Source of the DNA: Nannocystis bainbridge
GTDB lineage: Bacteria; Myxococcota_A; Polyangia; Nannocystales; Nannocystaceae
Direction: 5' to 3'
Length of the DNA stretch: 64,000 nt
Assembly (NCBI RefSeq): GCF_028368995.1
Contig: NZ_JAQNDL010000003.1
Coordinates: 1,376,001 to 1,440,000, forward strand
Below, piece by piece: positions 14,955 through 16,034 of the stretch (position 1 is its first letter; each line of letters opens with the position of its first letter). The translations under genes were made by a program, and so were the position numbers. The notes beneath the pieces were generated by a model. The model was given only the letters and a program-made list of their open reading frames with translations, was not told where the DNA came from and did no database searches.

Positions 14955-16034
14955 TCAACAGCCCCAGAGCACCGCGATTTCCTCGATCTCCGCCGCCCGG
15001 CTGGGCCGCGCCCTGCGCAGCGCTTCGAATAAGTTCGCGTCTACTTTGCCATGCCGCTTCAAGACATCCATCACTTGGTGGGCGACTCCGGCGAGTTCGG
15101 CTTCCCAAAGGATTTCCTTGACGAGTGAACTCAAGGATTCGGTCATGGCGAACAATCGTCGAAGGTCGGCGCTCTCGAAGGACCTCGCTAAGAAGTCGAC
15201 CAGCGCCTTCGCGGGTTCGGCGTCTCCTGCCCGGAGCTGGGGCGGCGCCGGCGACAAGAGGTCCAGAGTCGGCACGAACCCGCCCTTGTCGCGCTGATGG
15301 TCATAGACTCTCACGGGCGGATCCGCCTTGGGCAGGAAGCTCAGGCCGCACTGAACCGCCACGGCCACGGGCACGGCGGGGAACAGGTGGATCCGACAGC
15401 GTGGTCCGTGCGTCGCGCGAATTTTCGTCAGCAGATTCTGCCAGGCACTGGCGAAATCTTGCAGATGCGCCTCCGTGCGCACGGAGTCACGGCCCGGCTC
15501 CTCGACGGCGATCTCGTACATCGCACACGGACCCGGAGGCAGCACCGCCTCCGCCTCTTCCGGGTGCACCTTTCCGCTGATCGACAGTAACACCCCGACG
15601 TTCAAGCCTCGTGTTGTGTGGGTGACGACCTTGAAGGCCGACTGGTCCGGCCGCGAATCTCCCCACGTCCATCCAGCGGGCCTGTGGAACCGGTTGAACA
15701 CCCGGATCTCCTGCTTTTCGCCCAAGGCCTCACCGAGCACCATCAGGAGCGGGATTGGTGCGAGACCGAACACACTGATGCGCCGCACCGACGACTGCGC
15801 GACCTGCTGCAAGAACCCGCTCACCTTGCGCCGGATTTCGGAGGCCAACAACTTCCACGTCGCGGGCTCGTCGTCAGAAACCTCGAGATATGCGAGGTCG
15901 ATCTCCAGTCCTCCCGGGAGCGCCTCCCACGGCGGCAGGGCAGCCTGGATCTGCTCCTCGCTCCACAACCCCTTCTGACGGCCGATATTGGCGGAGAGGC
16001 GGATGACGTGGGTCTTCAGGGCGGGATCGTCCAT
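14955..16034 (-). CDS. SAVED cyclic-oligonucleotide sensor with C-terminal helical adaptor domain and no enzymatic effector
   Basis: SAVED motifs SVFGLAPIPLLMVLG, GWTW, LSISGKV, IHLFPAVPVAVAVQCG, YD...GGF; GAGGAG RBS just upstream; adaptor at ~14958-15221. Confidence 0.88.
   Translation of the reverse strand: MDDPALKTHVIRLSANIGRQKGLWSEEQIQAALPPWEALPGGLEIDLAYLEVSDDEPATWKLLASEIRRKVSGFLQQVAQSSVRRISVFGLAPIPLLMVLGEALGEKQEIRVFNRFHRPAGWTWGDSRPDQSAFKVVTHTTRGLNVGVLLSISGKVHPEEAEAVLPPGPCAMYEIAVEEPGRDSVRTEAHLQDFASAWQNLLTKIRATHGPRCRIHLFPAVPVAVAVQCGLSFLPKADPPVRVYDHQRDKGGFVPTLDLLSPAPPQLRAGDAEPAKALVDFLARSFESADLRRLFAMTESLSSLVKEILWEAELAGVAHQVMDVLKRHGKVDANLFEALRRARPSRAAEIEEIAVLWGC

Follow-up and report, generated by a model that had tools for sequence, protein, structure and literature searches.

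Passages of Kaur, Burroughs, Iyer and Aravind (2020, eLife, PMC7159879) define effector-associated domains (EADs) by their placement, at a terminus of a core component and, as another copy, on an effector that is often encoded next door; homotypic binding between the copies is predicted there, not demonstrated. Here we compare with these and other described systems a gene in a 64,000-nucleotide stretch of high-GC DNA (hereafter the window) from the 11 Mb genome of Nannocystis bainbridge (NCBI RefSeq assembly GCF_028368995.1, contig NZ_JAQNDL010000003.1, positions 1,376,001 to 1,440,000 of the forward strand). This gene, P0001 (14955..16034, minus strand), is an open reading frame (ORF) of 359 aa, read from its ATG with the stop codon included, that encodes a SAVED sensor domain followed by an adaptor domain, and it neighbors P0003, the gene for a CHAT protease with an adaptor at its N-terminus. 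We consider it likely that P0001 acts as cyclic-nucleotide sensor in a type III CBASS (an antiphage signaling system based on cyclic oligonucleotides), Cap5-derived and nuclease-less, and that its tail, an adaptor of the EAD kind, couples it non-covalently to the adaptor-CHAT protein, the pair forming a split SAVED-CHAT effector.

The resemblance to EAD systems begins with the layout, a small all-helical, non-enzymatic domain (85 residues and six helices here) on both the core terminus and the effector encoded by the adjacent gene. As in those systems, each genome has many paralogs, borne by proteins of the CHAT/caspase, trypsin, FGE-sulfatase, TIR and PNP types, and the same effector is elsewhere fused directly to the core (here in the homolog P0161). 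The core component differs, being a CBASS SAVED sensor in the window and vWA-MoxR, iSTAND or GAP1 in EAD-coupled systems.

Bacterial gasdermin systems, as presented in portions of preprint 10.1101/2023.05.28.542683 and in structure 8ss1, likewise have a six-helix Death-fold domain on the N-terminus of a protease and the C-terminus of a sensor. Their sensor is a nucleotide-binding leucine-rich repeat (NLR)-like NTPase that detects phage directly, whereas the window has a receptor for a second messenger, acting downstream of a cGAS/DncV-like nucleotidyltransferase (CD-NTase), and no gasdermin was seen in the window locus. The same two modules as in the window make up the fused SAVED-CHAT or CHAT-SAVED effectors (the type III-B CRISPR filament 8tl0; the type I CBASS of Myxococcus xanthus, PMC11506125; and P0161), but these are single chains, while SAVED and CHAT in the window are two polypeptides, each with an adaptor, split by a stop codon and 65 bp. 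Animal caspase recruitment through CARD or DED domains (apoptosome, inflammasome and death-inducing signaling complex) follows a logic that the window would share, in which an oligomerizing sensor with a Death-fold domain recruits a caspase-family protease. These animal domains are the best structural matches of the adaptor, yet have no detectable sequence homology to it, and the protease of the window is of the CHAT type, not a true caspase.

The SAVED domain was reportedly defined by Burroughs et al. in 2015. To our knowledge, the CBASS effectors described so far combine nucleotide sensor and killing domain in one polypeptide. In full-text searches of the literature we found no CBASS with an adaptor-only SAVED sensor and a protease on a second tagged protein, and an earlier mention is possible. 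Several of the elements are in print: Death-like domains in the immunity of bacteria (PMC8195603, with no SAVED, SMODS or CBASS on a term search), CARD-like domains in bacterial immunity (preprint 10.1101/2023.05.28.542683), fused CHAT-SAVED CBASS effectors (PMC11506125) and EAD fusions to the SAVED-like Csx15 (preprint 10.64898/2026.10.26.761840). The term SAVED is absent from the text of two of the supplements to Kaur et al. (2020), and others may list such architectures. The EAD-coupling principle, as set out in passages of PMC7159879, is here extended to CBASS, and the plug-in idea is not new in principle.

A complete SAVED domain without a catalytic domain

The initial annotation described P0001 as a SAVED protein lacking any catalytic effector, with a good ribosome binding site and only 104 bp between it and a divergent cyclase gene. 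The latter two features are both read in the sequence: GAGGAG lies 4 nt upstream of the ATG, and the intergenic spacer between this effector arm and the cyclase operon spans 16035..16138. The SAVED domain (residues 1-261; 15252..16034, minus strand) is confirmed to be complete and of the Cap5 type by Pfam, NCBIfam, alignment with Cap5 and Foldseek. Pfam SAVED (PF18145) matches residues 68-259 (7.8e-43; 146.8 bits against a cut-off of 26.2), positions 3-259 of the 261 in NCBIfam SAVED NF033611 correspond to residues 8-259 (147.1 bits against a cut-off of 33), positions 120-375 of the 378 in the PADLOC HNH-SAVED endonuclease model align to residues 5-259, and phmmer aligns residues 119-366 of Cap5 (7rwk_A) to residues 8-255 (E=6.8e-33). 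The best PDB and PADLOC matches are Cap5 and SAVED_HNH. The AlphaFold2 model (36-row alignment) has a mean predicted local distance difference test (pLDDT) score of 84, with residues 1-260 mostly at 76-98; its top Foldseek match is again Cap5 (E=4.6e-21), and SAVED-only crystal constructs superpose on it with template modeling scores of 0.84-0.87 (Foldseek). The core residues that are invariant over 36 aligned SAVEDs are retained.

It is equally confirmed that P0001 is without a catalytic domain, no domain other than SAVED and the tail fitting in the protein. The stop-to-stop frame has 371 codons, with at most 12 open codons before the ATG, so that an HNH, TIR or transmembrane module cannot fit N-terminally, as had been claimed. 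The N-terminal ~60 aa, for which a catalytic domain had been left open, are part of the SAVED fold: a cryptic catalytic domain was rejected there on the Cap5 alignment, the NCBIfam model and Foldseek, all of which place these residues inside SAVED, and the isolated N-terminal 66 aa gave no Pfam match. The segment that the initial annotation likened to one behind the nuclease in HNH-SAVED proteins was also located, THVIRLSANIG of P0001 pairing with THMLFYSARIG of Cap5 in the 7rwk_A alignment. Cap5 (PDB 7rwk, 7rwm and 8fm1) shares the SAVED type and the CBASS context with P0001 but has an N-terminal HNH nuclease, which P0001 lacks, its alignments beginning at model position 120 and Cap5 residue 119. 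Conversely, residues ~262-359 of P0001 extend past every Cap5-like homolog examined, and none of the 71 N-terminally extended relatives examined has a C-terminal adaptor.

Homology of the two adaptors

The C-terminal adaptor proposed in the initial annotation proved to be a domain of ~85 aa common to P0001, the CHAT protease next door and 12-13 other proteins of the genome. In P0001 it occupies residues 275-359 (14958..15212, minus strand; profile and AlphaFold2), behind a Pro-rich linker (residues 262-274), and is EAD1/EAD7-like and modeled as a six-helix, Death-fold-like bundle; the copy at the head of the CHAT protein, of the same family by profile and iterative searches, occupies residues 8-87 (14629..14868, minus strand). 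Searched in isolation, the tail of the SAVED protein and the head of the CHAT protein had no Pfam match at a limit as loose as E<=10, and a word-indexed homolog search with the SAVED tail alone returned only P0001 itself.

Among the 89,837 six-frame ORFs of the source genome, phmmer found paralogs from either seed, and profiles iterated from the tail or from the head arrived at the same 15 ORFs, whose carriers are diverse and of effector type. The first cross-detections between tail and head were weak (E=0.0044 and E=0.006, by models that did not contain the target). The profile of 13 paralogs from which both window copies had been excluded nevertheless gave E=1e-19 for the SAVED tail and E=4.1e-9 for the CHAT head, and by these profile comparisons the two are homologous adaptors. 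The unit of ~85 residues follows the alignment pattern L..LL...F...ELR.F ... LP ... L.R.G..D..FF..L...RPRR..EI. An origin of the matches as a composition artefact was rejected, only 15 of the 89,837 ORFs matching and the pLDDT being 97.

SAVED homologs and a SAVED-CHAT fusion

Searching with the SAVED region, we obtained 79 homologs at E<=1e-10. The combination of SAVED and C-terminal adaptor seen in P0001 recurs in P0159 (84% identity), in P0160 (72%; Nannocystis pusilla) and in P0162, which is N-terminally truncated. Nearly all the other homologs are extended at the N-terminus, by 67-158 residues, and not at the C-terminus; for 17 of the 79 an HNH match is precomputed in Pfam, and a crude HNH motif matches most of the N-extended ones.

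P0161 (472 aa) is a SAVED-CHAT fusion. It is 63% identical over the SAVED region, its C-terminal half is 64% identical to residues 106-299 of P0003, and a short Pro-rich linker joins the two modules, with neither adaptor present. The fusion of SAVED to CHAT in this protein indicates CHAT as the cognate effector in the window, and the covalent link, located in this close relative at the very place of tail, stop, start and head in the window, is the strongest evidence here, drawn from sequence comparison, that the window adaptors would substitute for that link. Metagenome scans with P0161 itself and with alignment A6 found no relative.

The same fusion bears on the suggestion that P0001 is a signal buffer or a regulator resembling a ring nuclease, its SAVED binding or degrading the nucleotide, next to a CHAT gene from an unrelated system. 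SAVED-like ring nucleases do exist, a viral SAVED (9r8s) is among the Foldseek matches of P0001, and Csx15 is reported as fused to EADs in preprint 10.64898/2026.10.26.761840. We nonetheless judge this highly improbable: the CBASS operon would have no effector without P0001 and P0003, the closest structural and sequence relatives of P0001 are Cap5 effectors, and the SAVED-CHAT fusion together with the common adaptor ties the two genes to each other.

Fold and family of the adaptor

AlphaFold2 modeled the adaptor (27-row alignment) as six helices with a mean pLDDT of 97.2. The best Foldseek matches are DED, DD, PYD and CARD structures at E-values of 1-8 (best 1.1), and 45 of the 50 best matches in the VIA structure search, which is independent of Foldseek, are DD, CARD, DED or PYD entries as judged by title. 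The Death-fold matches of VIA align 71-83 of 85 residues with a root-mean-square deviation of 2.6-3.6 Å and Z of 5.8-7.3, with the bacterial death-like domain 8ss1 among them (Z 6.5); for helical bundles, the tool cautions against treating Z as diagnostic when it is below about 8-13. We call the predicted fold Death-like on the consistency of these matches instead of on their score. Against PDB sequences, the adaptor profile reached a best E of 0.16.

Sub-threshold matches to Pfam EAD families occur among the 14 genome copies, to EAD7 (PF19960) in three (best 0.013) and to EAD1 (PF19955) in one (0.0068), and neither family exceeds its cut-off in the source genome. Among the best 150 of the 2878 family hits described below, the cut-offs of these two families are passed only by P0009 (EAD7), a protein with four adaptor stretches, and by P0024, P0082 and P0149 (EAD1), and for P0024 and P0149 the EAD1 match falls on the same stretch as that of the adaptor. 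We conclude that the adaptor is an unmodeled relative of EAD1 and EAD7, EAD-like in working and by thresholds a member of neither Pfam family. EAD1, EAD6 and EAD7 are described as distantly related helical domains in passages of Kaur et al. (2020, PMC7159879).

A Death-like fold would also suit a tail that serves the sensor itself, in homo-oligomerization of SAVED, filament nucleation or autoinhibition, with CHAT activated in another way, for example by binding SAVED directly. Death-fold domains commonly self-assemble (discussed also in PMC8195603), and SAVED effectors act as ligand-induced oligomers, to go by the titles of the Cap5 tetramer and SAVED-CHAT filament entries. This account is improbable in our view, for it leaves unexplained why the adaptor family is also found on the CHAT protein and many effectors, and why the fused P0161 dispenses with both adaptors together.

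Adaptor copies in the genome and elsewhere

The source genome has 14 confident adaptor copies, the two in the window included, and a doubtful one, L027, in a coiled-coil-like region (E=0.0046 with a later model). Outside the window the domain is carried by CHAT and SAVED proteins, one more of each (the SAVED with its adaptor N-terminal), by an FGE-sulfatase protein and a trypsin-like protease, by a NACHT-type NTPase that has HEAT repeats, by the doubtful nSTAND1-TPR protein and by seven proteins that match no Pfam or NCBIfam family. At L021, L025 and L026, which are among those without a family, the adaptor precedes a single hydrophobic helix, with a part beyond it that looks extracytoplasmic, and L017:7354-8115 and L020:7049-7861 encode paralogous small proteins in which the adaptor is joined to a helical C-terminal part of ~140 aa with no known family; all five are candidate new effector or sensor types. 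The 518-codon frame L018:6938-8491 (G000:C2) has its adaptor at residues ~336-430 behind an N-terminal region of ~320 aa without a family. No other paralog is closer to the SAVED tail than this adaptor, which is also the closest one to several copies borne by effectors (CHAT2, trypsin, unk447), and the protein may be another core or hub component.

When the 14-copy profile was run against 1.84 billion representative proteins, 2878 representative hits were obtained at E<=1e-3; with the limit set to E<=1e-10 they numbered 1029. We scanned the best 150 of the 2878 against Pfam at E<=1e-4: at least one Pfam family was present in 78 and none in 72, and some proteins had more than one family. The partners in these 150 included CHAT (11), Peptidase_C14 (1), Trypsin_2 (5), PNP_UDP_1 (5), Metallophos (3) and Pkinase (8), and TIR/SEFIR (20), FGE-sulfatase (4), STAND/KAP/AAA-type NTPases (14), TRADD-like_N (4) and SAVED (3) were also found, as were EAD1 (3), EAD2 (1), EAD5 (3) and EAD7 (2). 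These fusion partners are the set given for EADs in passages of Kaur et al. (2020, PMC7159879), and the family behaves as an effector tag.

Some family members (P0007, P0009, P0010, P0011 and P0016) have four or five adaptors in tandem, one of them being a protein of 2466 aa with WD40 and CHAT. Two others, P0043 (356 aa) and P0130 (357 aa), have the size and layout of P0001, with the adaptor at residues ~273-355, but the ~270 residues at the start match no Pfam family at E<=1e-4; here the tail may be joined to another kind of sensor domain.

Related CBASS loci and the SAVED tree

A search of genome contigs for related loci found one relative, L058 (genome G041, Nannocystis), in which a cyclase-HORMA-TRIP13 operon stands beside divergent SAVED-adaptor and adaptor-CHAT genes as in the window. 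ORFs in this high-GC DNA were scanned against Pfam. The source genome has a second CBASS, type II-like, at L023:6975-10844 (G000:C1, about 2917975-2921844), where the gene for the SAVED protein with N-terminal adaptor is convergent with those for an E1/E2 protein (ThiF + Prok-E2_B) and a DncV-like CD-NTase; no catalytic effector was found there in 15 kb. Two congeners have the same arrangement (L055 and L056), and at L054 a CD-NTase is followed by SAVED-adaptor and then an insertion sequence element. No second adaptor copy was found in L023, L054, L055 or L056 within the 15-16.5 kb of each, which leaves an adjacent adaptor-tagged effector at two of the six loci with SAVED and adaptor. The four without one leave room for effectors recruited from elsewhere; alternatively, partners there could have something that the adaptor profile misses.

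For the phylogeny we used 79 SAVED domains, namely 74 of the 79 homologs and five SAVEDs from loci of related genomes and of the source genome; the truncated P0162, P0227, P0229 and P0230 and the most distant sequence, P0236, were left out, and the locus-derived entries were drawn from one bacterial order, a biased sampling. The tree was built by IQ-TREE quick search with Shimodaira-Hasegawa-like approximate likelihood ratio test (SH-aLRT) support and a midpoint root. All eight HNH-less SAVEDs form one clade (SH-aLRT 97) among the 71 with HNH-like N-terminal extensions, which fits the nuclease loss proposed in the initial annotation, on a root placed by midpoint only. Within the clade, L054 with its C-terminal adaptor branches first, followed by three proteins with N-terminal adaptors (support 96), and P0161 is sister (support 98) to the trio of the window protein; L023 and L054 are on long branches. 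As far as sequences under this rooting can tell, the topology fits a single nuclease loss, an early gain of the adaptor, its movement between termini and the later fusion in P0161.

The loci without an adjacent tagged effector (the second CBASS at L023, and L054, L055 and L056) and the 12-13 further adaptor copies on diverse effector-type proteins of the genome would both suit the wider proposal of the initial annotation, a SAVED tail that is a promiscuous socket, through which one cyclic-nucleotide signal reaches several scattered adaptor-tagged effectors (the second CHAT, the trypsin-like protease, the FGE-sulfatase, and membrane-anchored and unassigned proteins) besides the adjacent CHAT. 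The nearest paralogs of the tail are likewise not on that CHAT protein, and extra EAD-tagged effectors elsewhere in genomes are mentioned in passages of Kaur et al. (2020, PMC7159879). We hold such a hub to be rather unlikely, although less so than the two alternatives above, as the fused P0161 and the conserved operon partner indicate CHAT as a dedicated effector, and two adaptor-bearing STAND NTPases in the genome could equally be hubs for the scattered effectors. With similar reserve, we suggest that myxobacterial CBASS might form an inflammasome-like modular network, with at least two Death-fold-tagged sensors per genome (type III and type II) drawing on a shared pool of tagged effectors. 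If such a network were true, one alarm molecule could set off several death or defense programs, and effectors could be swapped with the sensor untouched.

Proposed coupling of sensor and protease

The non-covalent coupling of P0001 to a dedicated adaptor-CHAT partner, which we favor, would work as follows, with adaptor-adaptor binding, proximity activation, ligand and protease substrates being steps that we infer. Phage infection would activate the cyclase, and its product would bind SAVED and cause it to oligomerize, as in the solved Cap5, Cap4 and SAVED-CHAT assemblies; oligomerization is a reasonable step because Cap5 tetramers and SAVED-CHAT filaments have been solved (by their structure entry titles). 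The clustered adaptor tails would then dock the adaptor heads of CHAT, and the crowded protease would become active and cleave cellular or viral targets. If true, this would join cGAS-like signaling to caspase recruitment of the Death-domain type inside a bacterium, a two-step logic shared with the animal STING or inflammasome pathways that lead to caspases, and it would show how defense systems exchange effectors. The system is small: it consists of two proteins with an 85-aa domain each, and nature supplies a fused control, P0161.

A number of observations weigh against this reading. BLASTP detected no similarity between the two window proteins or between the two adaptor segments, whose homology emerged from profiles only, and the CHAT head is the most divergent adaptor copy, without the RPRR motif. 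In all-against-all BLASTP of the 14 copies, the nearest paralog of the SAVED tail is on the 518-aa protein without an assigned family and that of the CHAT head on the second CHAT protein, and neither window copy is among the four best matches of the other; in EAD systems, by contrast, adjacent copies tend to be closest relatives, a tendency reported for cognate pairs from which the window departs. Both copies also fall below all Pfam EAD thresholds. At the level of structure, Foldseek gave no match to the adaptor model at E<=0.001, and the Z-scores from VIA lie under the level that this tool regards as diagnostic for helical bundles. Finally, the SAVED-adaptor ortholog of the related locus (L058:7261-8375; 74% identity) changes reading frame near residue 82, being split over two frames, and its start in the public annotation is at about residue 88 (P0162, 272 aa); either the gene is a pseudogene with a frameshift, or the long-read assembly is in error. 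A complex prediction that paired the SAVED tail and the CHAT head (27-row alignments, without controls) gave no answer, with a score of 0.00 twice, which speaks neither for nor against binding.

The CBASS locus and flanking genes

Across the spacer, the cyclase operon is encoded on the plus strand. It begins with the CD-NTase (16139..17173), whose GTG start at 16139 is preceded by AGGAGG (Pfam SMODS, 3.4e-13; PADLOC PDLC00791, 7.7e-127), and continues with a bacterial HORMA protein (17173..17667; Pfam bacHORMA_1, 1.1e-29), the ATG of which overlaps the cyclase stop as TGATG. A TRIP13-like AAA+ ATPase (17664..18545; PADLOC PDLC00914, 2.8e-92; Pfam AAA) completes the operon, overlapping the HORMA stop through ATGA and having an alternative ATG at 17658. 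We take this combination of CD-NTase, HORMA and TRIP13 to be type III CBASS according to the usual CBASS classification.

On the minus strand, the adaptor-CHAT protease gene P0003 (13990..14889; 299 aa) lies 65 bp downstream of the SAVED gene. Pfam CHAT matches its residues 162-273 (4.9e-9), the ~100 residues before this match are without a family, and the catalytic motifs are present on reading the sequence, AGHG with His174 and NAC with Cys217. The PADLOC SAVED_CHAT models match the window proteins weakly, at 6.8e-12 for the SAVED protein and 0.0074 for the CHAT protein. Third-codon-position GC in the five CBASS genes (13990-18545) is 0.76-0.85, against 0.90-0.97 in several flanking ORFs, which suggests that this stretch is a horizontally acquired island. 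Downstream of CHAT, at a distance of about 120 bp, is a gene for a membrane protein of the HupE/UreJ_2 family with a signal-peptide-like start (12797-13867, minus strand), probably an unrelated flanking gene.

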